Positions 4,008 to 55,089 of a DNA stretch of 64,000 nt are shown here, one piece after another. The number at the start of each line of letters is the position of its first letter. Positions within the stretch are counted from its first letter, which is position 1. This DNA comes from a bacterium (lineage in GTDB: Bacteria > Patescibacteriota > Minisyncoccia > Minisyncoccales > CG1-02-41-26), in assembly GCA_030603395.1 (NCBI GenBank), contig JAUVXX010000005.1, positions 885 to 64,884 on the forward strand. Direction: 5' to 3'. The notes under the pieces are model-generated. The model was given only the letters and a program-made list of their open reading frames with translations. It was not told where the DNA came from and made no database searches. The translations under genes were made by a program, and so were the position numbers.

Positions 4008-4013
4008 GTCTTT

Positions 4014-4042
4014 ATTTTACGGGAAATCTTGCCCTTCAGCAA
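4014..4042 (-). promoter_or_regulatory. putative sigma70-type promoter of tsaD-valS, leaderless geometry
   Basis: minus strand TTGCTG (4042-4037), 17 nt, TAAAAT (4019-4014), 6 nt, ATG 4007. Confidence 0.45.
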
Positions 4043-7902: not shown

Positions 7903-7973
7903 GAAAAAATTGAATATTAATCCAATTCAGCTTACAATTTAATTATACGTTAAACAAGTTCTAATCCAAAAAT

Positions 7974-8279
7974 ATGAAATACAACAAACTTGTTCGGGAT
8001 AAAATTCCTGAGATTATTAAGCAGAAAGGGAAAGTCCCAATTACCCATATTGCTGATGATGAAGAATATTGGCAAAAATTGAAAGAAAAACTTAAGGAAG
8101 AAGTTGATGAATTTTTAAAAGATAACAAGGAAGAGGAACTTGCTGATATTTTAGAGATAATTTATGCTATTTGTGATTTTAAGAAAATTGACAAACAAGA
8201 ATTGGAAATTCGCCGCAAAAAGAAAGCCGAAAAAAGAGGCAGTTTCAAAAACAAAATAATCCTCGACGAAACAAAATAA
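7974..8279 (+). CDS. MazG-like all-alpha nucleoside triphosphate pyrophosphohydrolase (small house-cleaning type)
   Basis: 101-aa ORF; MKYNKLVRDKIPEII...EELADILEIIYA pattern typical of this family. Confidence 0.65.
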   Translation: MKYNKLVRDKIPEIIKQKGKVPITHIADDEEYWQKLKEKLKEEVDEFLKDNKEEELADILEIIYAICDFKKIDKQELEIRRKKKAEKRGSFKNKIILDETK

Positions 8280-11004: not shown

Positions 11005-11013
11005 TGCTAAAAT
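11005..11013 (+). promoter_or_regulatory. extended -10 element of the pilus operon, leaderless geometry
   Basis: TGcTAAAAT, then 7 nt (aaaaaaa), then ATG 11021. Confidence 0.45.
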
Positions 11014-11020
11014 AAAAAAA

Positions 11021-12076
11021 ATGGGGATTTTTTCAAAAAGATGTTTGGGAATAGATATCGGAGCTTCTTCCATAAAGGTAGTTGAGATTTCTGGTGGTGG
11101 CAGGAGAAAGAAATTGGAAAATTATGCTGAGTTCCAGCTTCCCTTACAAGAGCCGCCTTTAAGTTTGTTTCATAAAAAGGAGCTGATTCTTTTGAGTGAA
11201 GAAACTTCAGAGATTTTGGAATGTTTATTCAAAAAAGCCAAGATTAAAAAAAAGAAAGTTGCTCTCTCTCTTCCTGATTTCTCTACTTTCTTTACCACTT
11301 TTAATTTGCCCCCGATGACGGAAGCCGAAGTCCCTCAAGCGGTAGAATTTGAAGCGCGCCATCATGTCCCCCTGCCTTTATCTGAAGTTACCTTTGACTG
11401 GCAGGTAATTGAAAGAGAGAAGATTCTTCCCGGAATTAAATTAAAGATATTGTTGGTGGCTATTCCCAATCGGGTTTTGGCAAGTTATCAAAAATTAGCC
11501 ACTTTATCCCAACTTGAGGTTGAAGGAATGGAAGCTGAAGTTTTTGGGCTGATGCGCTCTTCCATCCCTAAGGAACTCAATAAAAAGCCCGTTTGTTTGG
11601 TGGACATCGGCTGGGAGAGCACCACCGTCAGTATTGCCCAGGGAGGAACCCTGAGGTTGAGTCACAGCTTTGATATTTCGGGCAAGGAGTTTACCAGAGC
11701 TCTTTGTGAAAAGTTGAATATTGACTGGGAAAAAGCTGAAAATCTCAAGAAAGAGCACGGCTTAGATCCCGAAAAAAAAGAAATTTTTGATGCTTTAGTT
11801 CCCAAGGCAAATGAAATTGCCAGAGAAATAAATGGGGTTTGTCAAAGTTTTCAGCAAACCGAAGGGAAAAAAGCAGAGGATGTTATTCTGGCCGGGGGAA
11901 TGGTTTCCCTTTTTGGTCTAAGGGAATACCTGAATGTCCAGCTTAAAAAAAATATCCAGATTACCGATCCTTTTGCCAAGGTTTCTTTTCCTTCCATCTT
12001 AAAACCCCGGCTCCAGAAATTAGGACCTTCTTTTGGGGTCGCTCTGGGGGTAGCTTTAAGGGGTATCACCACTTAA
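11021..12076 (+). CDS. pilM: type IV pilus assembly protein PilM (actin-like ATPase fold)
   Basis: 351-aa ORF; GIDIGASSIKVVE phosphate-1 motif; head of pilus operon. Confidence 0.85.
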   Translation: MGIFSKRCLGIDIGASSIKVVEISGGGRRKKLENYAEFQLPLQEPPLSLFHKKELILLSEETSEILECLFKKAKIKKKKVALSLPDFSTFFTTFNLPPMTEAEVPQAVEFEARHHVPLPLSEVTFDWQVIEREKILPGIKLKILLVAIPNRVLASYQKLATLSQLEVEGMEAEVFGLMRSSIPKELNKKPVCLVDIGWESTTVSIAQGGTLRLSHSFDISGKEFTRALCEKLNIDWEKAENLKKEHGLDPEKKEIFDALVPKANEIAREINGVCQSFQQTEGKKAEDVILAGGMVSLFGLREYLNVQLKKNIQITDPFAKVSFPSILKPRLQKLGPSFGVALGVALRGITT

Positions 12077-12080
12077 TTAT

Positions 12081-12623
12081 ATGCCAAAAGAACCATTTGC
12101 CAGAATTATTCCCAAACCCAGACCGAAAACACCATTTTCTGTTAGCTTTCTTTTTTACTTTGCCATCTTGCTGGTAATTATTTCAATTGGAGGGTTTTTC
12201 TTTTTGGAAAGCCAGATTTCTTCCCAGAGAGAAAGGAAAGAAGAACTGGAGAGACAAATCGTAGAATTGGAAGGAGAGGAAGAGAAAAAATTAGAAGAAG
12301 AAATTTTATCCTTTGGAGAAAAAATTAAAATTTTCAAGGAGATTTTTGCCAACCATAAAATTAGCTCAAATTTCCTTTCCCTGCTTGAAAGTTCCTGCCA
12401 CCAAAAAGTTCAATTGACCAGCTTAAATTTAGCTACTGAAAATGGTCGGGTTAATTTGCAGGGAAAAACTGAAAGCTTCCAAACCCTGGGGGAACAATTT
12501 CTCATTTTTTCTGAAAATGAGAAATTGGAAAACCTTATTTTATCTAACATCTCTTTGGATAGGGAGGGGAAGATTAACTTTAGCTTAATTTTCTCCCTTC
12601 TCTTGGAGGTTTTAAAGAAATGA
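12081..12623 (+). CDS. PilN-like bitopic pilus alignment protein
   Basis: 180-aa ORF; single N-terminal TM then coiled coil; position after pilM. Confidence 0.55.
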   Translation: MPKEPFARIIPKPRPKTPFSVSFLFYFAILLVIISIGGFFFLESQISSQRERKEELERQIVELEGEEEKKLEEEILSFGEKIKIFKEIFANHKISSNFLSLLESSCHQKVQLTSLNLATENGRVNLQGKTESFQTLGEQFLIFSENEKLENLILSNISLDREGKINFSLIFSLLLEVLKK

Positions 12624-13147
12624 AAAAAAGTTTTAGCATCCCTATTTTATTATTCGTAGTTTTACTTTTGGCGATTTTCCTTGTCTGGCCGCAATACCAG
12701 GAATTTAAAGATTTGAAGGAACAAGTTGACGAAAAACAAGCCGAACTTTCTGAAACTGAAGAATATCTTTCAGAGCTTAGTCAAATTTCAGAAAAGCTAA
12801 ATGATTATCAAGATTCTTTAAAGAAAATTGAGTCGGCTTTGCCTCAGGACTCTTCCTTGCCTTCTCTATTGAATTTCTTTCAGAAAGAAAGTTCAGAAAA
12901 TGGGCTTTTGTTAAAAAATATCAACCAGACAGAAGGAAAAAGAAAAGAAGAGCCAAAAGGAATTTTAGCCAAAGTTAAAGAAACCTACATTAATCTCAGT
13001 CTTACAGGGACCTATCCATCCTTGAAGGGGTTTCTGGAAAGCCTGGAGAAATCCTCAAGATTAATTGAAGTTGAAAATATTTCTATTGATACTGCCGGAG
13101 AAGAATTTCCAGAGTACAACATTTTAATTAAAGTTCATCACATGTAA
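12620..13147 (+). CDS. PilO-like bitopic pilus alignment protein
   Basis: 175-aa ORF; N-terminal TM, coiled coil, C-terminal ferredoxin-like region; operon position. Confidence 0.55.
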   Translation: MKKSFSIPILLFVVLLLAIFLVWPQYQEFKDLKEQVDEKQAELSETEEYLSELSQISEKLNDYQDSLKKIESALPQDSSLPSLLNFFQKESSENGLLLKNINQTEGKRKEEPKGILAKVKETYINLSLTGTYPSLKGFLESLEKSSRLIEVENISIDTAGEEFPEYNILIKVHHM

Positions 13148-13148
13148 C

Positions 13149-13406
13149 ATGCCAGGAATTGCGGAACAAAATAAAACTCTTAAATATTTAATTTGGGGTG
13201 TGGTCTTGGCAGGAATTATTATTCTAATTTACTCCTGGTGGTGGCGTCCCAAGCCTCTTTCTCTTCCTCCTGTTCCCAAACCTTTCCCATCCGTTAAGAT
13301 TGACTTTGAATTTCTGGAGAGCCAGGAAGTCAAAGATATTTTACCCTTTGAGGAGATTTCCCTCCCAGAAGAAGTTGGTCGAGAAAACCCCTTTGAACCC
13401 TACTAA
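13149..13406 (+). CDS. small single-pass, Pro-rich membrane protein, pilus-operon accessory
   Basis: 85-aa ORF; TM LIWGVVLAGIIILIY; operon position only. Confidence 0.4.
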   Translation: MPGIAEQNKTLKYLIWGVVLAGIIILIYSWWWRPKPLSLPPVPKPFPSVKIDFEFLESQEVKDILPFEEISLPEEVGRENPFEPY

Positions 13407-13428
13407 AAATTTATACTCTCCAGTACCT

Positions 13429-15156
13429 ATGGACCTTATTTCTCAATTAGTTAAACAAAGAAAATTAAAGAAAAGAGAGGGAGCTCAGTTGAAGATGGAA
13501 GCCAAGGAAAAAGAAAAGACCCAAGAGGAGTTAATTTTAGAGAAGAAAATTTTATCGGAGAATGCCCTATTTCAACTCAAAAGCAAACTGACCGGAACTC
13601 CTCTGCGAGAAACTCTGCCAGAGAAAATTCCCCCCGAGATTTTAAATATTATCCCCAGAGAGTCAGTGGAATATTATAAAATAGTCCCCCTGCTTTTAAG
13701 AAAAAAAGAAGAGGTTTTGGAGGTAGGCATGGTTTACCCTGATGACCCTAAAGCAGTGGAGGCCTTAAAATTTTTAACCAGGCAGCAAAAGTTACATCCC
13801 AAAATTTTTCTAATCACTTTCTCTAATTTCAGAAAATATCTTGAGCAATTCCGAGCTCCCAAAAAGGAAGTAGAGAAAGCTTTGGAAAGATTGGAAGAAG
13901 AAATCAGACCGGAAGGGGGAAAAGCCATAAAGAAAGCCGAATTTGAGAAATTGGTTGAGGAAGCTCCGGTTATCAAAATGGTAGGGGTTATTTTGCGCCA
14001 AGCTATTGAAGGCAAGGCTTCTGATATTCACATTGAGCCGACCAGGGAGAACGTCAGAGTCAGATACCGCTTAGATGGAATTTTGCACTCCTCCCTTATT
14101 TTGCCCTTAAAGGTTTTGCCAGCCATCGTGGCTCGCATTAAGATTCTAAGCCGGCTTAGAATTGACGAAACCAGAATTCCCCAGGACGGTAGGTTCTCTG
14201 CCAAGATTGGAGAGAAAACCATTGACTTTCGAGTTTCCACTTTTCCCACCACCTTGGGGGAGAAGGTAGCTATTAGAGTTCTTGATCCCACCGAGGGTCT
14301 AAAATCTTTAATTGATTTGGGTTTGAGTGAGAGAAATTTTAAGGTGGTCAAAGAAGCCGTCAAAAAGTCCTACGGCATGATTTTAGCTACCGGTCCCACT
14401 GGCTCCGGAAAAACCACCACCTTGTATTCACTTTTCCAGCTTTTAAACAAAGAAGGAGTGAACATTGTTACTTTGGAAGACCCGGTAGAGTATTTTATTG
14501 ACGGGGTTAACCAATCCCAGATTAGACCAGAAATTGAATATACCTTTGCCAAGGGTTTGCGGCAGATTGTCAGACAAGACCCTGATATTATTATGGTAGG
14601 GGAGGTTCGAGACGAAGAGACGGCCGCCTTAGCCATTCATGCTGCTTTAACCGGCCATTTGCTTTTGTCAACTTTGCACACCACCAATGTCCTTGGGGTT
14701 ATTTCTCGGTTAATTGATATGGGAGTGAAGCCATTTCTTATTCCTCCCACCTTGAGTTTAGCCATAAGCCAGAGATTGGTCCGTGCCCTTTGCCCTTTCT
14801 GTAAAAAGAGAGTGAGGGCTCAGGGAGAAGCAAAAGATTATATCTTAAGCAAACTTAAAAATTTACCAGCCAGTGTAGCTGAGAAAGTCAGGGTTGGCAA
14901 GACCATCTTTATCTATCAACCCCAGGGTTGCAAAAAATGTAATTCCAAGGGATATTCGGGAAGAACCGGAGTTTATGAAGTTATCAAAATGACCGATGCC
15001 TTGGCTGAAATAACCATTCAAAATCCAACTGAAAGTCAGATTCTAAAAGAGGCAAGAGCCCAGGGCATGGTTACCATGGAAGAAGAAGGGGTGTTAAAGG
15101 TTTTAAAAGGCATTACTTCCCTGGAGGAAGTGATGAGGGTTGCGGAAGAAAAGTAA
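13429..15156 (+). CDS. pilB: type IV pilus extension ATPase PilB (GspE family)
   Basis: T2SSE N-domain, Walker A GPTGSGKTTT, Asp/His boxes, tetracysteine CPFC...CKKC; ORF track opens at 13300 but ATG 13429 avoids overlap with upstream ORF. Confidence 0.9.
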   Translation: MDLISQLVKQRKLKKREGAQLKMEAKEKEKTQEELILEKKILSENALFQLKSKLTGTPLRETLPEKIPPEILNIIPRESVEYYKIVPLLLRKKEEVLEVGMVYPDDPKAVEALKFLTRQQKLHPKIFLITFSNFRKYLEQFRAPKKEVEKALERLEEEIRPEGGKAIKKAEFEKLVEEAPVIKMVGVILRQAIEGKASDIHIEPTRENVRVRYRLDGILHSSLILPLKVLPAIVARIKILSRLRIDETRIPQDGRFSAKIGEKTIDFRVSTFPTTLGEKVAIRVLDPTEGLKSLIDLGLSERNFKVVKEAVKKSYGMILATGPTGSGKTTTLYSLFQLLNKEGVNIVTLEDPVEYFIDGVNQSQIRPEIEYTFAKGLRQIVRQDPDIIMVGEVRDEETAALAIHAALTGHLLLSTLHTTNVLGVISRLIDMGVKPFLIPPTLSLAISQRLVRALCPFCKKRVRAQGEAKDYILSKLKNLPASVAEKVRVGKTIFIYQPQGCKKCNSKGYSGRTGVYEVIKMTDALAEITIQNPTESQILKEARAQGMVTMEEEGVLKVLKGITSLEEVMRVAEEK

Positions 15157-20417: not shown

Positions 20418-20894
20418 ATGAAAAAAGGGTTTACTCTTCTTGAAGTAATAGTGGCTATCTCCATTTTTTTAATTGGCATTGTCGGAGTTTATGCGGTGGT
20501 CCCAAGAATAATTGCCATAGGTCAGGTTAACGTTGACAGATTTATTGCCTGCCAGCTCGGCAGAGAGGGCATTGAAATAGTCAGAAATATTAGAGATTCA
20601 AATTATTTGGAAGGAGCAGTTAGTTGGAATGATGGTTTGACTGATTGTTCTGGGGGTTGTGAAATTGATTATAATGATTCGGGATTCACTGCTTATGGTG
20701 ATGGTCGCTATTTACGCATTAATGCTGATGGATTCTATAATTATGATCCGGTCTCTGGAATAAATCCCGAGACAAAATTTAAAAGAAAAATTATAATTAC
20801 TCAGCCAGAAGGTTATATTTTAGATGTCCAGGTGCAAGTTTTTTGGTCTCAGGCATCTTCAACTGTTCAAGAGATTTTATATGACTGGAGATAA
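20418..20894 (+). CDS. minor pilin (PilV-like)
   Basis: MKKG|FTLLEVIV prepilin signal. Confidence 0.75.
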   Translation: MKKGFTLLEVIVAISIFLIGIVGVYAVVPRIIAIGQVNVDRFIACQLGREGIEIVRNIRDSNYLEGAVSWNDGLTDCSGGCEIDYNDSGFTAYGDGRYLRINADGFYNYDPVSGINPETKFKRKIIITQPEGYILDVQVQVFWSQASSTVQEILYDWR

Positions 20895-21441
20895 TTCAAT
20901 AAAAAATGGTTTTACCCTTATTGAACTTTTGGTAGCCGTAACCATTTTTTCGGTGGTGATTACTTCATTTTTTGGTCTTTTCAGTTCCGCCTTCCAGGAG
21001 CAAAGAAAGAATTTGAACTTACAATATCTCTTGCAAAATACCTCTTATAGCACAGAATATATCAGTCGGGCTTTGCGAATGGCTCGAAAAGACCTTTTTG
21101 GTGATTGTATTAGTGCCGGACATAATTTTGCTGTCATCGCAAATGGTATAAGATTCTTAAATTATGATAGAAAATGTCAGGAATTCTTTTTGGAGGGAGA
21201 GACGTTAAAAGTTAGAAAATCAACTGATGAAAGTTCCTCAAATTTCGGTAGTCCCGAACCGGTTACTCCCCAGAATATCGGGATAGACAATCTTCGGTTT
21301 GAAATTTCAGGGGAGAGTCAATTAGATACTCTCCAACCAAAAGTAACCTTCATGCTGGACATAAGAAATAAAACTCCAGAACCCCAAACCTTGAGCATTC
21401 AAACTAGCATCTCTCAAAGAGAATTAGATGTCCAAAAATAA
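20881..21441 (+). CDS. minor pilin (PilW-like)
   Basis: MTGDNSIKNG|FTLIELLV; ATG 20881 preferred over ORF-track 20824. Confidence 0.7.
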   Translation: MTGDNSIKNGFTLIELLVAVTIFSVVITSFFGLFSSAFQEQRKNLNLQYLLQNTSYSTEYISRALRMARKDLFGDCISAGHNFAVIANGIRFLNYDRKCQEFFLEGETLKVRKSTDESSSNFGSPEPVTPQNIGIDNLRFEISGESQLDTLQPKVTFMLDIRNKTPEPQTLSIQTSISQRELDVQK

Positions 21442-21799: not shown

Positions 21800-24915
<3,116 letters not shown>

Positions 24916-25049
24916 CAAACTCTTGAAAAAAGATAAAATAGGGAATATTCTCGGTATATTTTTTAAAAATTGTCTTGTTCTATTTTTAAGACTAATCTCT
25001 AAAAATTAACTATTAAGAACCCTTTTTCAGACAGGGGGTTTTTCTTGTT

Positions 25050-31916: not shown

Positions 31917-34112
31917 ATGCCTAAACTCAAGAAAAGAAAAAAGAACAAGAGGCCTCAAAATAGAGCAATCAAGTCAAAAGAGAAATTCAAGTATCCTGTT
32001 TTGACTTTGAGATTGAAGAGGTGGATAGGGGCGATTATGATGTTTGTTCTGGGCTCGGTCGTAGCCTTTTCTTTTTTTGAGAAAGCAGGAAAAGCGGGAC
32101 AGGTAATTTTTAGAGGATTAAATTTTCTCATCGGTAAAACAATATTTTTTATTCCTCTTCTGTTAATTCTGGGGGGATGGATAATTTTGAGGCCCCAGAA
32201 GAAGAGAATTTTCTCACCGATTTTTTACGGGATTTTAGTTTTAACTGTTGGCATTTCTGGAATTTTAGGAACTCAAAATTTAGCCGAAAACGCAGGCGGC
32301 TGGCTTGGTTATTTGTTATCCTGGCCCTTTTTAAATTATTTTGGTTTCTGGATAAGTATTATTGTTTTTTCAGCCTTAGTTTTGATTGGCGGGCTGATTT
32401 TTTGGGAATTTATGCCCAAGAAGAAAATTTCACCTGAGAAGGTTGTTGAAGAAAAAAAGAAGGAAGAAGAAAAAGAAAAAGCCGCGAGCGACAAACCCTT
32501 GATGGGCAAGCCAAAATTTGAAATTAAACCAATTGAAATTCCTCAAAAGAAAAAAGAGCTTGTTCCAGAGGAACAAAAAGAGGCGCTCGGACAAGTAAGA
32601 ATTCCGCCCCCCGAATTTCCCAGGGAGGCGAGAAACTATAAATTTCCTCCGATTGACCTCCTGGATTTAAGAGAAGAGACGCCATCAAGCGGTGATATTG
32701 AAACGAGCTCTCTGATTATTAAGAAAACATTGCAGAATTTTGGCATTGAGGTTGAAATGTCTGAAGTAAACGTTGGCCCGACCGTTACTCAATATACCTT
32801 GAAGCCGTCTGAAGGAGTGAAGCTTTCCAAAATTATTGGTTTGAGCAATGACCTGGCCTTGGCTTTAGCCAGCCACCCCATCAGAATTGAAGCTCCCATT
32901 CCCGGCAGGGCTTTGGTGGGGATTGAAGTTCCCAATAAAATCAGGGCAAAAGTGAAAGCAGGCAGTTTAATTGCCTCTTCGCAGTTTCAAAAATCTTCTT
33001 TCCCTCTTACTTTTTGTTTGGGAAAAGACGTCAAGGGCAGCTTCTTTTATCAGGACTTAGACAAGATGCCCCATCTTTTGATAGCCGGCTCCACCGGTTC
33101 GGGAAAGACAATTTGCCTGAACTCGCTAATTTTAAGTTTAATTTACCGCAATTCTCCCAAAATTTTAAGATTAATTTTAATTGACCCCAAAAGAGTAGAA
33201 TTCCCGGTTTATAATGCTTTGCCCCACCTTTTAACCCCGGTTATTCTCAATGCTCAAAAAGCGATTAATGCCATTAATTGGTTAATCGGGGAAATGGAAA
33301 GGAGGTTTGAAGTGTTACAGGAGAGTCGGACGCGAGATATTTCAAGTTACAACAAACTCCTGAAAGAAAAACCGGAGATGACAAAACAAGGATTTGTTGT
33401 TATGCCCTATATTGTTTTGATTATTGATGAATTGGCTGACCTGATGGCTTCCCGGGGCAGGGAGGTGGAGGCCGGCATTGTCAGATTGAGCCAGCTTGCC
33501 AGAGCCGTGGGGATTCATTTGGTAGTAGCCACCCAACGGCCGTCGGTTGAGATAATTACCGGTTTAATTAAAGCCAACATTTCCTCCCGTGTCGCTTTCC
33601 AGGTTGCTTCTCAAATTGATTCAAGAACCATCTTAGATATGGCAGGGGCGGAGAAGCTTTTAGGTTGGGGAGACATGCTTTTCATCTCTGCCGAACTTTC
33701 CCGGCCAAAAAGAATCCAGGGGAGTTTTGTTAGCTCTTCGGAGATTAAAAAGGTAGTCAATTTTATCAAAAAAGAGAACGTGGAGGAAGAAAAACAGGAG
33801 ATGGAGGAGAGTTTAGAGAGAGAGTTAACCGGGGAGGAGAGAGGAAAATTACCGGGCGTATCTTTTGAAGAGGACCCTCTCTACGAGGAAGCCAAAAGCG
33901 TGGTTGTGGAGTACCGTAAAGCTTCGGCTTCTCTCTTGCAAAGGAGATTAAAAATTGGCTACGCCAGGGCAGCCCGGCTTCTGGATATACTGGAAGAGAG
34001 AGGAGTGGTGGGACCGGGGGAGGGAGCTAAACCACGGAAGGTGTACTTGAAAGAGAATCCTCAAGACCCAAATTCCGGTGACCAAAAAGATTCTGATTGG
34101 GAAAAACTGTAA
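31917..34112 (+). CDS. ftsK: DNA translocase FtsK/SpoIIIE
   Basis: 731-aa ORF; N-terminal TM domain, Lys/Glu-rich linker, Walker A GSTGSGKT, C-terminal winged-helix gamma domain. Confidence 0.9.
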   Translation: MPKLKKRKKNKRPQNRAIKSKEKFKYPVLTLRLKRWIGAIMMFVLGSVVAFSFFEKAGKAGQVIFRGLNFLIGKTIFFIPLLLILGGWIILRPQKKRIFSPIFYGILVLTVGISGILGTQNLAENAGGWLGYLLSWPFLNYFGFWISIIVFSALVLIGGLIFWEFMPKKKISPEKVVEEKKKEEEKEKAASDKPLMGKPKFEIKPIEIPQKKKELVPEEQKEALGQVRIPPPEFPREARNYKFPPIDLLDLREETPSSGDIETSSLIIKKTLQNFGIEVEMSEVNVGPTVTQYTLKPSEGVKLSKIIGLSNDLALALASHPIRIEAPIPGRALVGIEVPNKIRAKVKAGSLIASSQFQKSSFPLTFCLGKDVKGSFFYQDLDKMPHLLIAGSTGSGKTICLNSLILSLIYRNSPKILRLILIDPKRVEFPVYNALPHLLTPVILNAQKAINAINWLIGEMERRFEVLQESRTRDISSYNKLLKEKPEMTKQGFVVMPYIVLIIDELADLMASRGREVEAGIVRLSQLARAVGIHLVVATQRPSVEIITGLIKANISSRVAFQVASQIDSRTILDMAGAEKLLGWGDMLFISAELSRPKRIQGSFVSSSEIKKVVNFIKKENVEEEKQEMEESLERELTGEERGKLPGVSFEEDPLYEEAKSVVVEYRKASASLLQRRLKIGYARAARLLDILEERGVVGPGEGAKPRKVYLKENPQDPNSGDQKDSDWEKL

Positions 34113-34118
34113 AAAAAA

Positions 34119-34127
34119 TGTTATAAT
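34119..34127 (+). promoter_or_regulatory. extended -10 element of recA, leaderless geometry
   Basis: TGtTATAAT, 6 nt, ATG 34134; no SD. Confidence 0.5.
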
Positions 34128-34133
34128 AATTTT

Positions 34134-35132
34134 ATGACAAAGAAGAAAGACGAAAAGAAGAAAGGATTAGATGAGGCCATAGAAGAGATTAGGCAGAGGT
34201 TTGGCGAAGGAGCCATTATGAAATTGGCCGGGGTAAGGCCGGTTGATGTTGATGTCATTCCAACCGGAACTATTTCTCTGGACTTGGCTCTGGGAGTTGG
34301 AGGAGTGCCGAGAGGCAGAGTAATTGAGATTTTTGGCCCTGAAAGTTCGGGAAAAACTAGTTTGGCGCTCCATATTTTAGCTGAAGCCCAAAGAAAAGGA
34401 GGGGTGGGAGCTTTTGTTGATGCTGAACACGCTCTGGACCCTGACTATGCCAAAAAAATCGGAGTTAACACTGATGACCTTTTGATTTCTCAGCCCGACT
34501 CTGGGGAACAAGCCCTGCAGATTGTGGAAACTCTGATTCGCTCCAAAGCCATTGACATTATTGTCATTGACTCGGTGGCTGCCTTAACTCCCAAAGCAGA
34601 GATTGAAGGTGAGATTGGAGACCAGCACATAGGTCGTCAGGCCCGTCTTATGTCGCAAGCGTTGAGAATGTTGTCTGGAGTTGTTGCTAAAACTAAAACC
34701 TCGGTCATTTTCCTGAACCAAACCAGAATGAAAATCGGAATTCTCTGGGGTAATCCTGAAACGACGCCGGGCGGCATGGCTTTGAAATTTTATTCTTCGG
34801 TTCGCATAAAATTGAACAGAATTGCTCAGATTAAACAAAGAGATGAAATTGTTGGTTCAAGAATTAAAGCCAAGATTGTTAAAAACAAAGTGGCTGCTCC
34901 CTTCAAGACGGCTGAATTTGATATTTATTGGAATGAAGGAATTTCCAAGTCAGCTGACCTCATCAATACTGGTCTGAATTATGGTGTTATCAAAAAAGCC
35001 GGCAGTTGGTACCAGTATGGAGCAAAAAAAATCGGCCAGGGTGTATCTGGCGTTAGAGAATTTCTAAAAGAGAACCCAAAAGCTGAGGAAGAAATAAAGA
35101 AAGCAATAATGGAGAAAATTCAGGAGAAGTAA
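34134..35132 (+). CDS. recA: recombinase RecA
   Basis: 332-aa ORF; GPESSGKT Walker A, L1/L2 loop regions, canonical RecA pattern throughout. Confidence 0.97.
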
Positions 35133-35479: not shown

Positions 35480-36408
<929 letters not shown>

Positions 36409-36415
36409 ATGTTTG

Positions 36416-36443
36416 ATTTTATCAGTCTCTTTTCAAAAGTCAA
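36416..36443 (-). promoter_or_regulatory. putative promoter of rpsF-ssb-rpsR, leaderless geometry
   Basis: minus strand TTGACT (36443-36438), 16 nt, TAAAAT (36421-36416), 7 nt, ATG 36408. Confidence 0.55.
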
Positions 36444-45702: not shown

Positions 45703-46074
45703 CTATTGAATTTCCTTTAGCTTGGGTCGTCTTCTTCTAACAAGTAAGCTCAGGAGCCAAACAATAAGTCCTGCCCAGAAAAGCGCTCCCAAACCTTCGA
45801 TGGTTAACTTAGGAAAAAAGATATCCACCAGCCAAACCATACCCATATTCACCACTAAACCAAAAAGTCCGAAGGTGAGCAATCTTAAGGGAAAGGTAAT
45901 GAGGTTGACAATTGGTTTAATAAAAAAATTGACCAGCCCCAAAAAAACTCCAGCAAAAAATAAGATTTTAATTTGTTCTCCAAAACTTCCCTGGGCTTCC
46001 ACCCCGGGAACAAGCAAGGTCGCCAGATAAAGAGCCAAAAAGCCAACAATGATGTGGCCGAGAAATCGTTTCAT
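45703..46074 (-). CDS. DUF360 / phage-holin-4-2 family membrane protein
   Basis: 123-aa ORF; four TM pattern with PLRLLTFGLFGLVVN segment. Confidence 0.6.
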   Translation of the reverse strand: MKRFLGHIIVGFLALYLATLLVPGVEAQGSFGEQIKILFFAGVFLGLVNFFIKPIVNLITFPLRLLTFGLFGLVVNMGMVWLVDIFFPKLTIEGLGALFWAGLIVWLLSLLVRRRRPKLKEIQ

Positions 46075-46086
46075 TTGTTTATCTTA

Positions 46087-47415
46087 CTAAGATTTATCTC
46101 TTAAGTCAATAAGTTGTAGTTTTCGATGATATTTTATGGCGAAGCGGTGAGCTTCATCTCTGATGTGTAAAAGCAAGTTGGAAATTTCCTGAGGAAGATT
46201 TTTTAACAAAATTGGTCTTTTCCGACCTTCAATATAAAGTTCATTTTTTCTTTTGGCTAAAGCTAAGACGCTGATAGACGCTGATAGACGCTGATAATGC
46301 TGATTTAGAATATTTATAGCTGCGTTCAACTGAGCTTTTCCTCCATCAATAAGCATTACCTGGGGAAATTTCCATTCCGGGTGATTGAAGCGGCGGGAAA
46401 TTATCTCTTTTAACATGGCGATATCATTCGGCTCTTTTAAAATTTTTATCTTGAATTTCCGATATTCCTTTTTGTCAGGTTCTCCCTTTTCAAAAACTAT
46501 CATTGCCCCGGTGGCCTTTTTTCCTTGAATATTGGAAACATCATAACCCTCAATTCTTAAGATTTTCTTTTTTACGCCCAAAATCTTTTTAAGGAGTTTC
46601 TCAATTTCTGGCCAGTTTTTCGGTGCTGGCTCAACCAAACCTTGAAAAACTCGAGCCTGCTCAAAAACATTGTTCAGGGCCTCAATTTGGTCTCGCAATC
46701 TGGCTGCTCTTTCAAACTCCTGTTTTTGAGAAGATTTTTTCATTTCTCTTTTTAAATCAATCAGGACTTGAGTTTTCTTTCCCTGAAGGACTTTTATTAA
46801 ATTCTTTGTATTTCTTTGCGACTCTCTTTTAATTTTTCCCTTCAATCCCGGGAGTTGCTTGGCTAAGCTAAGCAACAGGGTGCACGGTCCCGGGCAACGA
46901 TTGAGCTGGTACCAGAGGCAAGCTCTCTTAGGAATTCTTTTGCAAGAGCGATAGGGGAAAGCTCGGCGTAGAATTTTTAGGGTCGCTTTCAATGCTTTAC
47001 CGTCAACAAACGGCCCCAGGTAGTTAGTTTTTAGTTTATAGTGAGTAGTTGATAGTTTTGTCTGGTGGGTGATAAATATCCTCGGGAAATCTTCCTTGGT
47101 TATTCCCACAAAAAAATAATTCTTGTCATCTCGCCACAAAATATTGAATTTGGGCTGCTTTTCTTTGATTAAATTTGCTTCCAAAATTAAGGCCTCAATC
47201 TCTGAGTCGGTTTTAAGATAGCCGATTTTTTTAACGTCTCCGATAAAAAGCTTGTCTCGGAAGCCATTCTTGCGAAAATGATTTTTCACCCTTTCTCTAA
47301 TGTTGCCAGCTTTACCAATATACAGAATTTCTCGCCCTCTTTTAAAAAGATAAACCCCCGGTGCTTTGGGCAGAGAAGAAACTTTCTTTTTATCCAAGTA
47401 CCTAAACCTTGCCAT
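46087..47415 (-). CDS. uvrC: excinuclease ABC subunit C, short form without C-terminal (HhH)2
   Basis: 442-aa ORF; GIY-YIG (GVYLFKRGREILYIGKA), UVR domain, endonuclease region IDGGKAQL...RDEAHRFAI. Confidence 0.88.
   Translation of the reverse strand: MARFRYLDKKKVSSLPKAPGVYLFKRGREILYIGKAGNIRERVKNHFRKNGFRDKLFIGDVKKIGYLKTDSEIEALILEANLIKEKQPKFNILWRDDKNYFFVGITKEDFPRIFITHQTKLSTTHYKLKTNYLGPFVDGKALKATLKILRRAFPYRSCKRIPKRACLWYQLNRCPGPCTLLLSLAKQLPGLKGKIKRESQRNTKNLIKVLQGKKTQVLIDLKREMKKSSQKQEFERAARLRDQIEALNNVFEQARVFQGLVEPAPKNWPEIEKLLKKILGVKKKILRIEGYDVSNIQGKKATGAMIVFEKGEPDKKEYRKFKIKILKEPNDIAMLKEIISRRFNHPEWKFPQVMLIDGGKAQLNAAINILNQHYQRLSASISVLALAKRKNELYIEGRKRPILLKNLPQEISNLLLHIRDEAHRFAIKYHRKLQLIDLRDKS
46267..46305. 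repeat. 3 x 10-nt tandem repeat gacgctgata plus a degenerate fourth unit, inside uvrC
   Basis: units at 46267, 46277, 46287; encodes QRLSASISV. Confidence 0.9.
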
Positions 47416-47437
47416 AACTCCTTTATTTTACTATAAT
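47409..47437 (+). promoter_or_regulatory. putative uvrA promoter, leaderless geometry
   Basis: TTGCCA (47409-47414), 17 nt, TATAAT (47432-47437), 8 nt, ATG 47446. Confidence 0.55.
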
Positions 47438-47445
47438 AGATATTT

Positions 47446-50250
47446 ATGGCAAAGGACTACATAAAAATTCGACGGGCCAGGGTTCACAACTTGAAGAATA
47501 TTAATCTGGATATTCCCAAGAATAAACTGGTGGTTATTACCGGCGTTTCGGGTTCGGGTAAATCATCTCTGGCTTTTGATACTTTGTATGCTGAGGGCCA
47601 AAGAAGATATGTTGAGAGCTTATCAGCCTATGCCAGGCAATTTTTGGGAGTAATGCAAAAACCAGACGTTGATAAAATTGAAGGAATCTCACCAGCCATT
47701 TCCATTGACCAAAGAAAAGCCAGCCACAATCCCCGTTCCACTGTTGGCACCATGACCGAGATTTACGATTACTTAAGGGTGCTTTTTGCCAGAATCGGCA
47801 TTCCCCATTGTCCAAAATGCAGCAGAAAGGTTTCTCGCCAGACGGTTGACCAAATAGTTGAGCAGATTTTAGACATGCGAAAGGATAAGCACGAAGTGCT
47901 CATTTTGGGTCCGGTGGTTCGGGGCAGAAAAGGGGAGCATCGGGCCATCTTGGAAGAAATTGAAAGAGCGGGTTTTGTCAGGGTGAGAATTGATGGTCAC
48001 GTTCAGAGGATTGAAGAGGCGCTGACCGGGACTCTTAGCAGAAATAAAAAACACCATATTGAAGTGGTGGTTGACAGGTTAATCATAGAAGAGGGCTTAG
48101 AAAAATCCCGCTTGGTTGATTCAGTGGAAACCGCCTTGAAGTTAGGTAAGGGATTGATGATGGTAGATGGTTTGCTCTTCAGTGAGCATTTTGCTTGTGA
48201 ATATTGTGGAATTTCTTTGCCGGAACTTGAGCCTCGTCTCTTCTCCTTTAACTCGCCCTACGGAGCTTGTTCTGGCTGTCAGGGCTTGGGTAAAAAATTG
48301 GAAGTTGACCCCAAGTTAGTCATTCCCAACGAGAACTTATCAATTAGTGAGGGAGCAATTTTCCCCTGGGCTCACGCTTCGCATAAGGTTGGCCGTCAGA
48401 GCTATTTCTGGTGGCAGCTTCAGGACTTGGCTGCCGAGCATAACTTTTCTTTAGACACCCCGGTTAAAAATTTACCCCAAAAGGTTTTAGACCTTATTTT
48501 CAATGGCGATGATAATTTTGAAGGGGTAATTCCCAATCTTGAGAGAAAATATTGGGAAACGGAGTCGGACGCCACCAGAGAGGAGATTAAAAAATATATG
48601 AGAGAGAGGAAATGCGAGAAGTGTCAGGGGAAAAGATTGAAACTGGAGGCCTTGGCAGTGAAGGTGGCCGGGAAATCAATTGATAAAATAGTCGAGATGG
48701 AGATAGTCAAGGCCAAGGAATTTTTTGAAAAATTGGACAGACAAATACTTGGTGAATCAAAATTTAAAATTGCTCAAGACCTTTTAAAAGAGATTATTTC
48801 AAGATTACAATTCTTGAATGATGTTGGCTTGGATTATTTAACTTTATCAAGAGAAGCGGAAACCCTGGCTGGGGGAGAGGAGCAGAGAACTCGCTTAGCC
48901 ACCCAGATTGGTTCAAAATTGACCGGAGTTTTATATATTTTAGATGAACCCTCGGTTGGCTTACATGCCAGAGACCAAGCCAGATTGATTGAAACCTTGA
49001 AAAAGCTAAGAGATTTAGGAAATACAGTGGTCTTGACTGAGCATGATTATCAAACTATTCGCGAAACTGACTTTGTAATTGATATTGGTCCTGGGGCTGG
49101 CAAGCATGGCGGTAAGATTATTTTTGAGGGAACACCAAAGCAGCTTCTTCATTCGCATACCTTAACTGGAGATTATCTGGCAGGGAGAAGAAAGGTGACG
49201 GTCGAAGACCGTCATCCTGAGGAGCGAGGCGACGAAGGATCTAATAAAACCCAAAAAAACTATTTGGTTATCAAAAAAGCGACTGAGCACAATTTAAAAA
49301 ATATTGACGTTAGAATTCCTTTGGGTAAATTTGTTGGGGTGACCGGGGTTTCAGGTTCTGGTAAAAGCAGTTTGGTCCGAGACATCATTGCTCGAGCCTT
49401 GTATCAAAAATTCTATCACTCAAAGGAGGAACCCGGTAAACACCAAAAGATTTTGGGGACTGAATTTTTGGACAAAGTAGCCCTGGTGGACCAATCGCCT
49501 ATTGGCAGAACTCCCAGAAGCAATCCGGCAACTTATACCGGTAATTTCAGTTATATCAGAGACCTTTTTGCCAGAACCAAAGAAGCAAGAATTAAGGGTT
49601 ATCTTCCCGGAAGATTCAGCTTTAATGTTAAAGGTGGAAGGTGTGAGGCCTGTGAAGGTCAGGGACTCCGCAAGATTGAAATGTATTTTTTGCCCGACGT
49701 TTATGTCCAATGCCAGGAATGTAAAGGTAAGAGATACAACAAAGAGACCTTAGAAATTGAGTACAAGGGGAAAAATATTGCTGAGGTTTTGGAAATGACG
49801 GTTGAGGAAGCCCTGAAATTTTTTGAAAACATCCCCGGACTGCGCTACAAATTAAAAACTTTATCTGAGGTAGGGCTCGGCTATATTGAACTCGGGCAGC
49901 CCGCTCCCTCTTTGTCGGGCGGGGAAGCTCAAAGAGTAAAATTAGCTACCGAACTTTCCAGAAAATCAACCGGTAAAACCTTATATATTTTAGACGAGCC
50001 AACCACTGGTTTGCATCCCCATGACATCAAAAAATTAATTTTTGTTTTAAAAAGTTTAGTTGATAAAGGAAACACGGTTCTTTCCACGGAACACAATCTC
50101 GATTTTATTAGGAACACGAACTGGATTTTAGATCTCGGTCCCGAGGGAGGGGCTCAAGGCGGCTATATCGTTGCTGAGGGCACTCCTGAAAAAATAGCTA
50201 AAAACAAAAAAAGCTACACCGGTCAATATCTAAAGAAATATCTTGCTTGA
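47446..50250 (+). CDS. uvrA: excinuclease ABC subunit A
   Basis: 934-aa ORF; two ABC ATPase modules ([10 protein letters not shown] twice), Zn modules. Confidence 0.96.
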
Positions 50251-50274
50251 CAAAAATTTTCTTGTGATTAAGAT
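50247..50274 (+). promoter_or_regulatory. putative groES-groEL promoter, leaderless geometry
   Basis: TTGACA (50247-50252, overlaps uvrA stop), 16 nt, TAAGAT (50269-50274), 8 nt, ATG 50283. Confidence 0.55.
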
Positions 50275-50282
50275 AGATTTAT

Positions 50283-52192
<1,910 letters not shown>

Positions 52193-52265: not shown

Positions 52266-52541
52266 TTATCCTTTAACCCTTTGAACTTTTACTTCTACCT
52301 CTTGAAGGCCTATCTCTCCCTTAACACCTAAATGACTGAAATCCAATCTTTTGCGACATCGGGGGCAATAAAGCTCGAGAGAATCCTCCTTGTCCGCCAA
52401 TTTTGCTGAGATGATTTTATCGAGATGGTCTTTTACAACTCCATTCAGCGAAGCACCACAGGATTCACAACTATACCAGGAGTGCCCCAATTCTCTTTCA
52501 ATCTTGACACGTGTTGTTTCTTCTTTTATTTTTCTTCTCAT
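52266..52541 (-). CDS. small Zn-ribbon protein, function unknown
   Basis: 91-aa ORF; CESC...CPRC; canonical SD AAGGAG 8 nt upstream. Confidence 0.55.
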   Translation of the reverse strand: MRRKIKEETTRVKIERELGHSWYSCESCGASLNGVVKDHLDKIISAKLADKEDSLELYCPRCRKRLDFSHLGVKGEIGLQEVEVKVQRVKG

Positions 52542-52699: not shown

Positions 52700-53314
52700 T
52701 CATATTCTTTCTCTCACCTTTTTGGCAGCATCTATAAAGGGGATGGAGAGAAAGTATGCCATTGCTATCGGCAAAACCGCCATCCAGAGCATGACAAACA
52801 AAACCTCCCCCTTAACATTTCCATACTCTCTCTTCAGTTTTTCCAATCCTGAGGCCTTTTCCCTCCCTTCATTGATGAGTAAAATCTTCAGGAATTCTAT
52901 TATAACTATGTAGAAAACAAATCCAGAAATGACATCCTTTGCCCAATTCGGTATAAGAGTGCCGGGAAGCATCCTAATTCCTATCATCCCTATCAGACCA
53001 AGTGTGAGACCAACAGATTGAAGGAAGAATTTTTTTCCTTTCACAAATGCCCTAAGTGTTTCTTTTACCCCCTCCTTTACAAAGAGATAACCTATTTCTG
53101 CAGCGGCTACGATTAATATGGCTGGCAGAAAAAGCTGGGAAGATATTATATCCAGAGATACCAGCAACATAATTACTATCAGAGCCACACTAATGAGCAG
53201 AAAGTATAAAAAACTTCCTCTTTTCCCCTTTGGTCTTGAACGAATTTCTTTTCCTCCACAGTAAACAGAAGCAACCAAAGCTAATCCAAGGAAAATCGCA
53301 AACGGAATATTCAT
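52700..53314 (-). CDS. polytopic membrane protein, function unknown
   Basis: 204-aa ORF; about 6 hydrophobic segments; SD AAGGAGG (53322-53328) 7 nt upstream. Confidence 0.6.
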   Translation of the reverse strand: MNIPFAIFLGLALVASVYCGGKEIRSRPKGKRGSFLYFLLISVALIVIMLLVSLDIISSQLFLPAILIVAAAEIGYLFVKEGVKETLRAFVKGKKFFLQSVGLTLGLIGMIGIRMLPGTLIPNWAKDVISGFVFYIVIIEFLKILLINEGREKASGLEKLKREYGNVKGEVLFVMLWMAVLPIAMAYFLSIPFIDAAKKVRERI

Positions 53315-53396: not shown

Positions 53397-53963
53397 TCAA
53401 CTTCTTTTAGCGAGGCGTTTAATAAAGCTCTTTCTTCCAAATATAATCAAAAGAATAAAAAGGGCCACTAAAAATGCGACTGCATAGTAAATTCCTTTCT
53501 GAAAAGATATTCCACCAAAATAGTAGATTAAAAACATAATCGGAGCATTACCCAGCAATGACGAGAAGAAAAATTTTGAAGGACTGATTTTAGTTAGTCC
53601 TGCCGCATAACTTACATAATCAAATATTGGGCTGGTTGGTAACCTAATAGCAACCAGTGTCCAGAATTTCTTTTTTTCAGAGACAGTGCTTTCCCATTCT
53701 TGGACTTTTTGTAAAAAGGTAATCCGCTTTACTATCGGTTCTCTGAAGGTTCTGGCAATCCAAAAAGCAACCATGGCTCCTAACATAACACCAATTTCCG
53801 CATAGATAAATCCAAGGATTTTTCCAAAAGCGATAATGCCAATTACGTCAAAAACTATTCCGGGAATCGGTGGAATAATTGTAGATGTTGACCTGACAAT
53901 TATAAAAATAAAAGGTGCAACTATTTTATAATCTGAGAGTAATTGGACTAAAAATTCTTGCAT
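53397..53963 (-). CDS. DedA/TVP38 (VTT-domain) membrane protein
   Basis: 188-aa ORF; IIPPIPGIVFDVIGIIAFG VTT-like motif. Confidence 0.65.
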   Translation of the reverse strand: MQEFLVQLLSDYKIVAPFIFIIVRSTSTIIPPIPGIVFDVIGIIAFGKILGFIYAEIGVMLGAMVAFWIARTFREPIVKRITFLQKVQEWESTVSEKKKFWTLVAIRLPTSPIFDYVSYAAGLTKISPSKFFFSSLLGNAPIMFLIYYFGGISFQKGIYYAVAFLVALFILLIIFGRKSFIKRLAKRS

Positions 53964-53996
53964 ATTTTTCGATTATTTATGAATTCTTTATTCTAC

Positions 53997-54019
53997 CAAA
54001 AAATCGCCTCCTTGGCGAT
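53997..54019 (-). terminator. putative terminator downstream of 54106-54393
   Basis: minus strand atcgcc-aagga-ggcgat followed by tttttt. Confidence 0.5.
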
Positions 54020-54105: not shown

Positions 54106-54393
54106 TTACGATCCCTTTGATTTCCCCTTTTCTCTTTTGGGAACTTCCTTGGCCTCTTTTTCCTGTTCTTTAAGGGCTTGGATAGCTATACCTGCTATAG
54201 CTTGCTCTCCTGTTTTCTCTCCCGCTTTCTGAATAGCCTCAATCATTCCTGGGACAGCCTCTTTTGGGATTATTCCACCATGAATGTATATTCTTGCCAG
54301 GGTAACAAATCCATAAGCACCCAGGTTTGTAGAGAGTATCTCTTTAATCATTTCGTGAACAGGTTTTCTTTTCTTTTTTTGCTCCTCAGACAT
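54106..54393 (-). CDS. hypothetical protein, Lys/Glu-rich termini
   Basis: 95-aa ORF; SD AGGAGG (54401-54406) 7 nt upstream; no recognised motif. Confidence 0.5.
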   Translation of the reverse strand: MSEEQKKKRKPVHEMIKEILSTNLGAYGFVTLARIYIHGGIIPKEAVPGMIEAIQKAGEKTGEQAIAGIAIQALKEQEKEAKEVPKREKGKSKGS

Positions 54394-54555
54394 TTTCTCC
54401 CCTCCTTCTTAATTTAATCATTTCTTTCTAGAAGTTCTTGTGAAATTATTAAGATTTTCTATCTTGCCATACTTCAATAAAAAGGTCAAGCCCGTGTAAT
54501 GAGCTTTAATAGTGTTCAAGGTTTGATTATCTATCATCATTGTGATATTATAAAA

Positions 54556-55089
54556 ATGATGAATTGTCCAAGTTGTAAAATAGAACTAAAGAAGGCGGTT
54601 TTCTATGGGGTAGAGATTGACTATTGTCCCAAGTGCTTGGGGCTTTGGTTTGAACAGAACGAGTTGAGCGGAGCCAAAGACGAAAAAGACAAAGATTTAA
54701 ACTGGCTGGATATTCCACTCTGGCAAGACAAGGCAAAATTTCAGATTTCAAAAGGAAAAAAACTCTGTCCCTCTTGCTCCGTGCCGCTTTACCAGGTTAA
54801 TTACGGCGATTCTCAAATTGAGATTGACCTCTGCAATGTCTGTCAAGGAATCTGGTTGGACAGGGGAGAGTTCAAAAAAGTCATTGATTACCTGAAAGAG
54901 AAAGGTAAAAAAGAGGTTTTAGAAAATTATTTCAAAAATTTAATTGCCGAGGGAGTGGAAGTATTTACCGGACCCGAAAGCTTTCGCTCAGAGCTTTCAG
55001 ATTTTTTAACCATTTTAAAACTTCTTAATTACAAATTCGCCACCCAGCATCCCATCATCACTGAAATAATCTTAAACTTACCAAGGTAA
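54556..55089 (+). CDS. protein with two TFIIB-type Zn-ribbon (zf-TFIIB, PF13453-like) modules
   Basis: CPSC...CPKCLGLWFEQNEL and CPSC...CNVCQGIWLDRGEF; ATG 54556 preferred over 54499. Confidence 0.65.
   Translation: MMNCPSCKIELKKAVFYGVEIDYCPKCLGLWFEQNELSGAKDEKDKDLNWLDIPLWQDKAKFQISKGKKLCPSCSVPLYQVNYGDSQIEIDLCNVCQGIWLDRGEFKKVIDYLKEKGKKEVLENYFKNLIAEGVEVFTGPESFRSELSDFLTILKLLNYKFATQHPIITEIILNLPR

Follow-up and report, generated by a model that had tools for sequence, protein, structure and literature searches.

Promoters that lie directly against start codons are known from the group C genomes of GeneMarkS-2, a class that takes in 90% of Actinobacteria and 97% of Deinococcus-Thermus; in these genomes a -10 box stands 6-8 nucleotides (nt) from the start of operon-first genes, and 25-50% of operons are leaderless (PMC6028130). 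The TA-led genes of Zheng et al. 2011 are an earlier description (PMC3160421), and experimental evidence for leaderless genes comes from M. tuberculosis (PMC3898074) and from Deinococcus (PMC12340547). We analyzed a 64,000-nt stretch of bacterial DNA (contig JAUVXX010000005.1, positions 885 to 64,884; hereafter the window) in which -10 boxes with full promoter architecture stand next to the ATG of recA, uvrA, groES, rpsF, and other genes; the motif holds the same position in related loci, is restricted to operon-first genes, and is conserved in orthologues. The reading we prefer, to which we give a probability of about three in four, is that operon-first genes are transcribed from σ70-type promoters as leaderless mRNAs (in the operational sense of a 5' untranslated region [UTR] of 0-5 nt) and that this is a property of the clade, the exact transcription start sites (TSSs) and the mode of translation being predictions from sequence.

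The arrangement shares with the group C or TA-led genomes (Mycobacterium, Streptomyces) a Pribnow box 6-8 (~10) nt from the first-gene start, a leaderless share of 25-50% of operons, the absence of a Shine-Dalgarno (SD) sequence between box and start, and internal genes that differ from first genes. Group C genomes, however, are GC-rich, have a minimal TAnnnT usually with no clear -35, and still place SD sequences at internal and leadered genes, whereas the window and its clade combine ~40% GC with full TTGACA-17-TATAAT or TGn-TATAAT promoters and an almost complete absence of SD sequences, even at internal genes. In Deinococcus-Thermus, a similar upstream-motif analysis found a -10 motif directly upstream of ~30% of open reading frames (ORFs), acting clade-wide as a leaderless promoter; that work concerns another phylum and used reporters and RNA-seq (PMC12340547), whereas ours uses sequence and comparative evidence. 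Little or no SD use is a feature that the window shares with the "group B" Bacteroidetes and with bacteria of the candidate phyla radiation (CPR), whose ribosomes are reduced (PMC6028130, PMC9297842, PMC10582724), but group B carries one non-SD motif at all genes, on leadered mRNAs, whereas the motif here is a promoter and occurs at operon-first genes only. This is thus a known kind of gene organization, found here in a group for which we found no published description, and no new mechanism for biology; locally, it stands out by full TTGACA/TGn promoters within AT-rich DNA, near-absent SD sequences even at internal genes, and the presence of housekeeping and stress genes in the leaderless set. 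Our literature search, which did not extend to the GeneMarkS-2 per-genome group classes or to the TM7x TSS data (PMID 35975994), returned no paper linking CPR, Patescibacteria, Parcubacteria, or Saccharibacteria with leaderless mRNAs, and no description of how mRNA is recruited to CPR ribosomes.

The window is ~93% coding, with very short intergenic gaps, and carries a type IV pilus cluster, ligA, rpoB-rpoC, ftsK, recA, an rpsF-ssb-rpsR operon, RNase J, uvrC/uvrA, groES-groEL, glycosyltransferases, and six tRNAs; an Rfam scan of it returned tRNAs and nothing else. Its nearest UvrA relatives in the species-level genome collection are metagenome-assembled genomes (63-88% identity) labeled Patescibacteria group, Candidatus Paceibacterota/Paceibacterales, Staskawiczbacteria, or "uncultured Saccharibacteria," and on the strength of these labels we assign the host to a Parcubacteria/Paceibacteria-type member of the CPR (Patescibacteria) with a small genome. 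We fetched 19 CPR loci via UvrA and 80 via RecA (69-80% identity); the clade set comprises 89 non-redundant related loci (0.88 Mb, window excluded), and 31 loci from other phyla served as a control set. In all, 130 loci were fetched. Genes in the fetched loci were called as the longest non-overlapping ORFs, a crude procedure that weakens any positional signal but cannot generate it. The control-phyla loci show low SD rates with such crude starts and therefore serve for comparing promoter position, but not SD use. Genes with an upstream gap of at least 20 nt were taken as operon-first. Because the upstream DNA is AT-rich and a count of TANNNT alone is too noisy, we counted a gene only if the complete promoter motif, (TTGnnn-N16-18 or TGn)+TAnnnT, ended 5-9 nt ahead of its ATG, and obtained the chance expectation from 300 dinucleotide shuffles.

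Full promoters in this position precede 7 of the 31 operon-first genes of the window (tsaD and recA with spacers of 6 nt, pilM and rpsF with 7, uvrA and groES with 8, and uvrC with 9), compared with 0.4±0.6 in the shuffles (maximum 2). In the clade, they precede 78 of 344 operon-first genes, compared with 5.5±2.3 (maximum 13), and none of the 300 shuffles reached the observed count in either set. The initial annotation of the window had expected distances from the -10 box to the start codon to be enriched at 6-8 nt over shuffled upstream regions; we find enrichment at ATG-adjacent spacers in both the window and the clade, with clade peaks at 6 (28 genes), 8 (24), and 9 nt (15). When the recA and uvrA orthologues are left out, the clade still gives 59/304. 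The control phyla yield 2/225 and their low-GC members 1/109 (Fisher p=1.4e-9 vs. the clade and 1e-4 vs. the window). Furthermore, operon-internal genes have such a promoter in 7 of 163 cases and operon-first genes in 85 of 375, a 5-fold difference (p=2e-8). At least one case occurs in 21 of the 26 loci with at least six operon-first genes; five have none.

The boxes come with the remaining elements of a promoter at their proper distances. Among the 89 genes that have a -10 box at spacers of 5-10 nt, TTG peaks at exactly 17 nt (24/89, with ~2 at other spacings) and TGn is found in 34/89 (~3 at other offsets). An unbiased count of hexamers over the same spacers ranks TATAAT as the most enriched word (25 genes vs. 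3.3 in equally wide upstream windows), with TAAAAT next. When the search starts from the motif instead of the gene, a long ORF has its first ATG 6-9 nt after TAnAAT in 33/135 cases among the CPR loci and in 9/126 among the controls. The seven cases in the window have TTG at 16-17 nt in five and TGn in three. In addition, an independent consensus scanner scores uvrA at 11/12 matches and places uvrA, uvrC, groES, and rpsF (10-11/12) among 14 such sites in the 34-54 kb region; the promoter of a holin-like gene, discussed below, reaches 9/12.

The initial annotation had listed nine genes with ATG-adjacent boxes, and every one of its nine combinations of hexamer, spacer, and ATG is present in the sequence exactly as written (Table 1). 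Pfam searches bear out the gene identities it had given (RecA, UvrA, Cpn10, S6, TsaD, PilM, VTT/DedA, and Zn_ribbon_TFIIB), and its MazG-like ORF has no Pfam match. Six of the examples are strong (recA, uvrA, groES, rpsF, tsaD, and pilM), and the Zn-ribbon gene is supported by its orthologues after a slight revision of box and start; the DedA gene is ambiguous and the MazG-like gene weak. Its reading of these genes as leaderless transcription units is strongly supported by the position of the boxes, their architecture, and comparative evidence, from which we infer the short 5' ends.

For recA, which lies 21 nt past the ftsK stop codon (34110-34112), the start is fixed, with the RecA Pfam domain aligning from residue 11 and an alternative start codon absent. 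Many orthologues share both the ftsK-recA junction and a TG-extended TATAAT, TATTAT, or TAAAAT box with a modal spacer of 6 nt, and the -10 matrix alone finds a box at spacers of 5-9 nt in 17 of them, compared with 7.7 expected, a significant but modest excess. The uvrA promoter has its -35 over the first codons of the divergent uvrC, and most relatives keep TATAAT 7-14 nt ahead of the uvrA ATG; in the closest of them (L001, UvrA 88% identical) both hexamers are unchanged and substitutions are confined to the spacer. The uvrA/uvrC intergenic region measures 30 base pairs (bp) and holds back-to-back promoters; both genes open with the seven bases ATGGCAA, whose reverse complement supplies the -35 (TTGCCA) of the other gene. 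UvrC itself matches the UvrC domains and has a canonical N terminus, and its assignment as leaderless is ambiguous because its 9-nt spacer contains AAGGAG and an SD-bearing leader could arise from a TATTAT 17 nt upstream.

The groES gene follows uvrA after a 32-nt gap, and its Cpn10 alignment begins at residue 2. Its architecture is less conserved, the same type being found in L006 only (TTGACA-16-TAATAT-9-ATG). For rpsF, the first gene of the S6-SSB-S18 operon, the S6 domain aligns from residue 3, and three orthologues (L053, L051, and L062) carry TTGACT-16-(TAAGAT/TAGAAT/TAAAAT)-6 to 8-ATG. At the ychF-rpsF junction of eight other loci (L091, L102, L103, L109, L116, L069, L072, and L081), the final ychF codons contain a -10-like box whose distance to the rpsF ATG is 5-10 nt; the conserved YchF C terminus (..DGDVIEFKI*) encodes TTTAAGATATAA or TTTAAAAT, and there coding constraint is inseparable from promoter function. 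The N terminus of TsaD (MIILAIDTSCDDT) is canonical, as are those of UvrA and PilM, and pilM is the first gene in the type IV pilus cluster.

The holin-like gene, which was absent from the initial annotation and is to be added to its list, follows a 12-nt gap with its -35 within the 3' end of uvrC; four loci (L001, L007, L075, and L124) keep its -35, its -10, and its 6-nt spacer. All five orthologues of the Zn-ribbon gene begin at residue 20-21 of the window protein (M-x-C-P), which supports the shorter start proposed initially, and the true start is probably 54556 or, more likely, 54559 (MNCP). In L012 and L004, the same gene has TATAAT-6-ATG immediately past a terminator hairpin, which excludes read-through into it there. 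The alternative box of the DedA gene would give a leader of ~19 nt with no SD, and both of its candidates stand just past a terminator hairpin (atcgcc..ggcgat+T6). The MazG-like mRNA probably has a leader, since a canonical promoter sits 35 nt upstream.

Table 1. Candidate promoters, spacers, and start codons in the window, with the SD-led genes for contrast
Feature	Positions	Strand	Elements
recA promoter/start	34119-34136	+	TGt 34119-34121, TATAAT 34122-34127, aatttt spacer (6 nt) 34128-34133, ATG 34134
uvrA promoter/start	47409-47448	+	TTGCCA 47409-47414, 17 nt, TATAAT 47432-47437, 8 nt, ATG 47446
uvrC promoter candidate	47413-47452	-	TTGCCA 47452-47447, 16 nt, TAAAAT 47430-47425, 9 nt, ATG 47415
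groES promoter/start	50247-50285	+	TTGACA 50247-50252, 16 nt, TAAGAT 50269-50274, 8 nt, ATG 50283
rpsF (S6-SSB-S18 operon) promoter/start	36406-36443	-	TTGACT 36443-36438, 16 nt, TGa+TAAAAT 36421-36416, 7 nt, ATG 36408
tsaD promoter/start	4005-4042	-	TTGCTG, 17 nt, TAAAAT 4019-4014, 6 nt, ATG 4007
pilM promoter/start	11005-11023	+	TGc+TAAAAT 11008-11013, 7 nt, ATG 11021
Holin-like gene with four transmembrane segments (Phage_holin_4_2), 45703-46074	46072-46109	-	TTGACT 46109-46104, 17 nt, TAAGAT 46086-46081, 6 nt, ATG 46074
Zn-ribbon gene	54541-54561	+	TGtGATATT (6 nt to 54556) or TATTAT 54546-54551 (7 nt to 54559)
DedA/VTT gene upstream region, ambiguous	53963-53999	-	TTGGTA-16-AATAAT-8-ATG (leaderless, weak -10) or TGgTAGAAT 53998-53990, 26 nt upstream
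MazG-like gene, weak example	7910-7976	+	TCTAAT 7960-7965, no -35 or TG; canonical TTGAAT-17-TACAAT (7933-7938) 35 nt upstream
SD-led contrast set, three hypothetical genes	52266-52541, 52700-53314, 54106-54393	-	AAGGAG, AAGGAGGT, AAGGAGG 6-8 nt before ATG

We propose that these are ordinary σ70-type promoters, in which the -10 box is joined by a TGn extension or by a TTGnnn -35 16-18 nt away; from them RNA polymerase would start at the A of the ATG or no more than 1-2 nt upstream of it, so that the first gene of each unit would be expressed from a leaderless mRNA with a 5' UTR of 0 to ~3 nt. Such an mRNA would be free of SD sequences and would be translated by initiation at its 5'-terminal AUG; the established initiation route for leaderless mRNAs is 70S or IF2-dependent. 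As the usual distance from the -10 box to the TSS is 7 bp (PMC12641261), a 6-nt spacer would put +1 on the A of the ATG, where a T at -1 followed by A makes the preferred pyrimidine-purine start. With spacers of 8-9 nt, the A of the ATG would be the first favorable purine, as at uvrA, or a leader of 1-2 nt would result, as at groES. Roughly a quarter of the operon-first genes of the clade appear to be of this leaderless type, beside a minority of leadered mRNAs, a few of them with a strong SD.

Several observations weigh against this reading. Five loci with 8-14 operon-first genes each (L008, L010, L011, L016, and L019) have no ATG-adjacent full promoter at all, and the trait is not uniform. 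For the recA orthologues, the best of 1000 shuffles also hit 17, the -10 score alone being poorly specific in AT-rich DNA. By folding energy of the first 33 nt, the predicted leaderless mRNAs show no significant reduction in 5'-end structure relative to other mRNAs (p=0.10). Spacers of 8-9 nt may give 1-2-nt leaders instead of none, and read-through from the upstream gene could produce leadered polycistronic copies of recA, groES, and the holin-like gene. This last point can be widened into an account in which the promoters are real and the functional templates are mostly leadered, through read-through or upstream promoters; internal initiation that needs no SD would translate these templates, and the ATG-adjacent promoters would supply a minor or conditional leaderless fraction. 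The gaps at these three genes are indeed tiny (21, 32, and 12 nt, respectively) and terminator-free toward the upstream gene, many leadered and internal genes are clearly translated with no SD, and full promoters stand 20-45 nt upstream of about 8 genes in the window. We nevertheless judge it unlikely, since the -35, the -10, and the spacer length are conserved beside the ATG in orthologues, a terminator hairpin directly precedes the box in several of them (including the Zn-ribbon gene in L004 and L012), and the ATG-adjacent promoters of the clade (78) outnumber those 20-45 nt upstream (50).

It is improbable that the TA-rich box is a translational signal instead of a promoter, whether a non-SD ribosome-binding element or an A/U-rich enhancer of the Bacteroidetes "group B" type. 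SD use near background would suit such a signal, as would an A-rich stretch from -6 to -2 and a T at -1 in 61% of all starts, those of internal and box-less genes included; a translational element would, however, be expected at internal genes too (the criterion of PMC6028130), and the box is five times commoner at operon-first genes, comes with TGn or with TTG at exactly 17 nt, and has TATAAT itself as its top enriched word. We rejected an A/U-rich translational enhancer on this co-occurrence with -35 or TG and on the contrast between operon-first and internal genes. An explanation by random matches in AT-rich intergenic DNA and by how start codons were chosen is hardly credible: TANNNT alone is weakly enriched in the window, where its histogram has a weak peak too noisy to decide, and matches by score only are common in shuffled AT-rich sequence, but the full-promoter counts lie far beyond the shuffle maxima (7 vs. 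2 in the window, 78 vs. 13 in the clade), the low-GC control phyla lack such promoters in all but one of 109 genes, and the starts are fixed by protein homology. Chance was rejected on the shuffles and the control phyla. Peaks in base composition at A-11 and T-7 were also discarded as evidence, being modest in operon-first genes and confounded in internal genes by upstream stop codons at 4-nt gaps. We continue to favor leaderless mRNAs made from σ70-type promoters.

The initial annotation had remarked that internal operon genes lack SD-like tracts, and SD motifs are at background level in the window and the clade alike. Over 4-18 nt upstream of starts, SD 4-mers and 5-mers in the clade occur at 7%, compared with 8% at the control position, and are likewise at background in the window; 6-mers occur at 10 genes in the clade (6.7 expected) and at 4 in the window (0.75 expected, p=0.007). 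Most genes therefore show no SD enrichment 4-12 nt upstream of their starts, and a minority use an SD. The spacers of 6-8 nt in the leaderless-type cases are SD-free and all their starts are ATG, with uvrC (AAGGAG in the spacer) as the exception. The SD-led genes of the window are three neighboring hypothetical genes with no Pfam match, with the perfect SD sequences AAGGAG, AAGGAGGT, and AAGGAGG, and pilO (12620-13147, + strand), with GGAGGT; a promoter lies ~30 nt upstream of the first two hypothetical genes in Table 1, and none was found for the third. A gene of similar length in L010 (191 amino acids vs. 204) has a near-identical "aaaaaaggaggtt" leader. SD-led leadered mRNAs thus appear to coexist with the leaderless type in the window, and because four of its genes are genuinely SD-led, the anti-SD is probably retained and functional in this lineage, though most genes do not use an SD. 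The 130 fetched loci contain no 16S rRNA 3' end from which the anti-SD could be read.

Same-strand junctions with gaps below 20 nt (n=27) are mostly tight: 21 are overlaps or gaps of at most 6 nt, seven of these being ATGA overlaps. Because junctions of this kind predominate, the downstream SD-less genes are probably translated by coupling of termination and reinitiation. In published surveys, an anti-SD motif was detected in only 48% of Parcubacteria and bS21 is often absent (PMC9297842), and Era has been lost in most CPR (PMC10582724); these losses fit SD-independent initiation. As a separate observation, made over all called starts of the window and the CPR loci, T precedes the ATG at 61% of CPR gene starts, with the A-rich stretch from -6 to -2; internal in-frame ATGs have this T in 21% of cases and the starts of control phyla in 32%. 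The figure is 70% for genes with a nearby -10 box and 55% for those lacking one, and the preference holds at operon-internal genes. The T(-1)/A-rich stretch looks like a general start-codon context signal in the clade.

The initial annotation had also argued that there is no space for operators of the CIRCE (controlling inverted repeat of chaperone expression) or LexA type upstream of groES, recA, and uvrA, and that heat-shock and SOS genes are consequently wired differently here. The argument from space is invalid, because operators commonly overlap promoters or sit in flanking coding sequence; what stands is that groES wiring differs. A search for CIRCE (TTAGCACTC-N9-GAGTGCTAA) with up to 3 mismatches gave no match anywhere in the window, the groES upstream region included, whereas the uvrA-groES region of five relatives contains CIRCE-like repeats with 2-3 mismatches (L002:12965, L004:2602, L007:9974, L009:4646, and L035:3642; for example, TTAGCACTTAGCGACCGTGACTGCTAA) and L012 has a sixth with 4 mismatches. 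The repeat lies 102 nt upstream of the called groES in L002 and 38 nt upstream in L004, and just downstream of uvrA in L007, L009, and L035, where groES was not called. The CIRCE-bearing groES genes of L004 and L002 are the closest to that of the window (85-86% identity). Compared with HrcA-CIRCE control of groESL, the window thus has a 32-nt gap filled by a promoter of the leaderless type, and because CIRCE is missing from the window while relatives carry CIRCE-like repeats, we take groES to be wired differently in this lineage through loss of CIRCE. LexA boxes, which differ between phyla, gave no match of the CTGT-N8-ACAG or GAAC-N4-GTTC type within ~100 nt upstream of recA, uvrA, uvrC, or rpsF-ssb, and overall counts of LexA-box-like sites are those expected by chance. 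Neither an hrcA nor a lexA gene is among the window proteins scanned.

Some related loci carry another element next to their start codons, the motif (G)ACTTCTAACGGGG(T), which abuts (0-2 nt) the starts of rpsF, ssb, uvrA, recA, and others in 13 of the 130 fetched loci, including L008, L014, L054, L066, L080, L086, L122-L124, and L127. Divergent gene pairs often carry it at both ends, and it sometimes lies ~7 nt past a TATAAT-like box, where it may form the whole 5' UTR; its spacing is not SD-like. Pairing with an altered 16S tail, an operator, and an RNA processing site are ideas for what it does. L008, which has no ATG-adjacent full promoter, is also among the loci rich in the TTCTAACGGGG leader. 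In the window, the only full occurrence of the motif lies in frame within ligA (22339-22367), where two 13-nt arms form a perfect palindrome (CCCCGTTAGAAAT-acg-ATTTCTAACGGGG), and it otherwise appears as TTCTAAC upstream of three genes (17954, 55682, and 7974).

Three further observations concern individual genes of the window. Upstream of rpoB (25017-25049, ATG 25050), a G+C-clamped hairpin and T-run end ~5-11 nt before the ATG, in a gene that lacks both an SD and an adjacent -10; rpoB orthologues have comparable hairpins, and the structure resembles the rplL-rpoB attenuator. The longest-ORF start of the gene at 20824-21441 is probably too long, as the pilin N-methylation motif begins at residue 27, placing the real start near 20893. 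The call for pilB (13300-15156), with a TTG start overlapping a small ORF, is probably too long as well.

We also considered a broader proposition, that SD-led initiation was largely abandoned in Parcubacteria/Paceibacteria-type CPR bacteria: at least a quarter of the transcription units, core stress and housekeeping genes such as recA, uvrA, groES, rpsF, and tsaD among them, would be expressed from full σ70 promoters as truly leaderless mRNAs that begin at the A of the AUG, the T(-1)/A-rich context and coupling would serve the rest, such a promoter would have replaced CIRCE at groES in this lineage, and in sister lineages the 12-nt leader ACUUCUAACGGGG abutting the start may act as an initiation signal. 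Taken as a whole, this is tentative, and we lean slightly against it.

The findings have practical consequences for work on these organisms. Leaderless-aware models are advisable for calling gene starts in CPR metagenome-assembled genomes, and operators and 5'-UTR regulators such as CIRCE and riboswitches should not be assumed at genes of this type. The native TATAAT-6-ATG cassette is usable for the heterologous expression of CPR genes. CPR bacteria account for a large share of bacterial diversity, and the promoter-at-ATG organization offers a concrete, testable answer to how mRNA is recruited for about a quarter of their transcription units.

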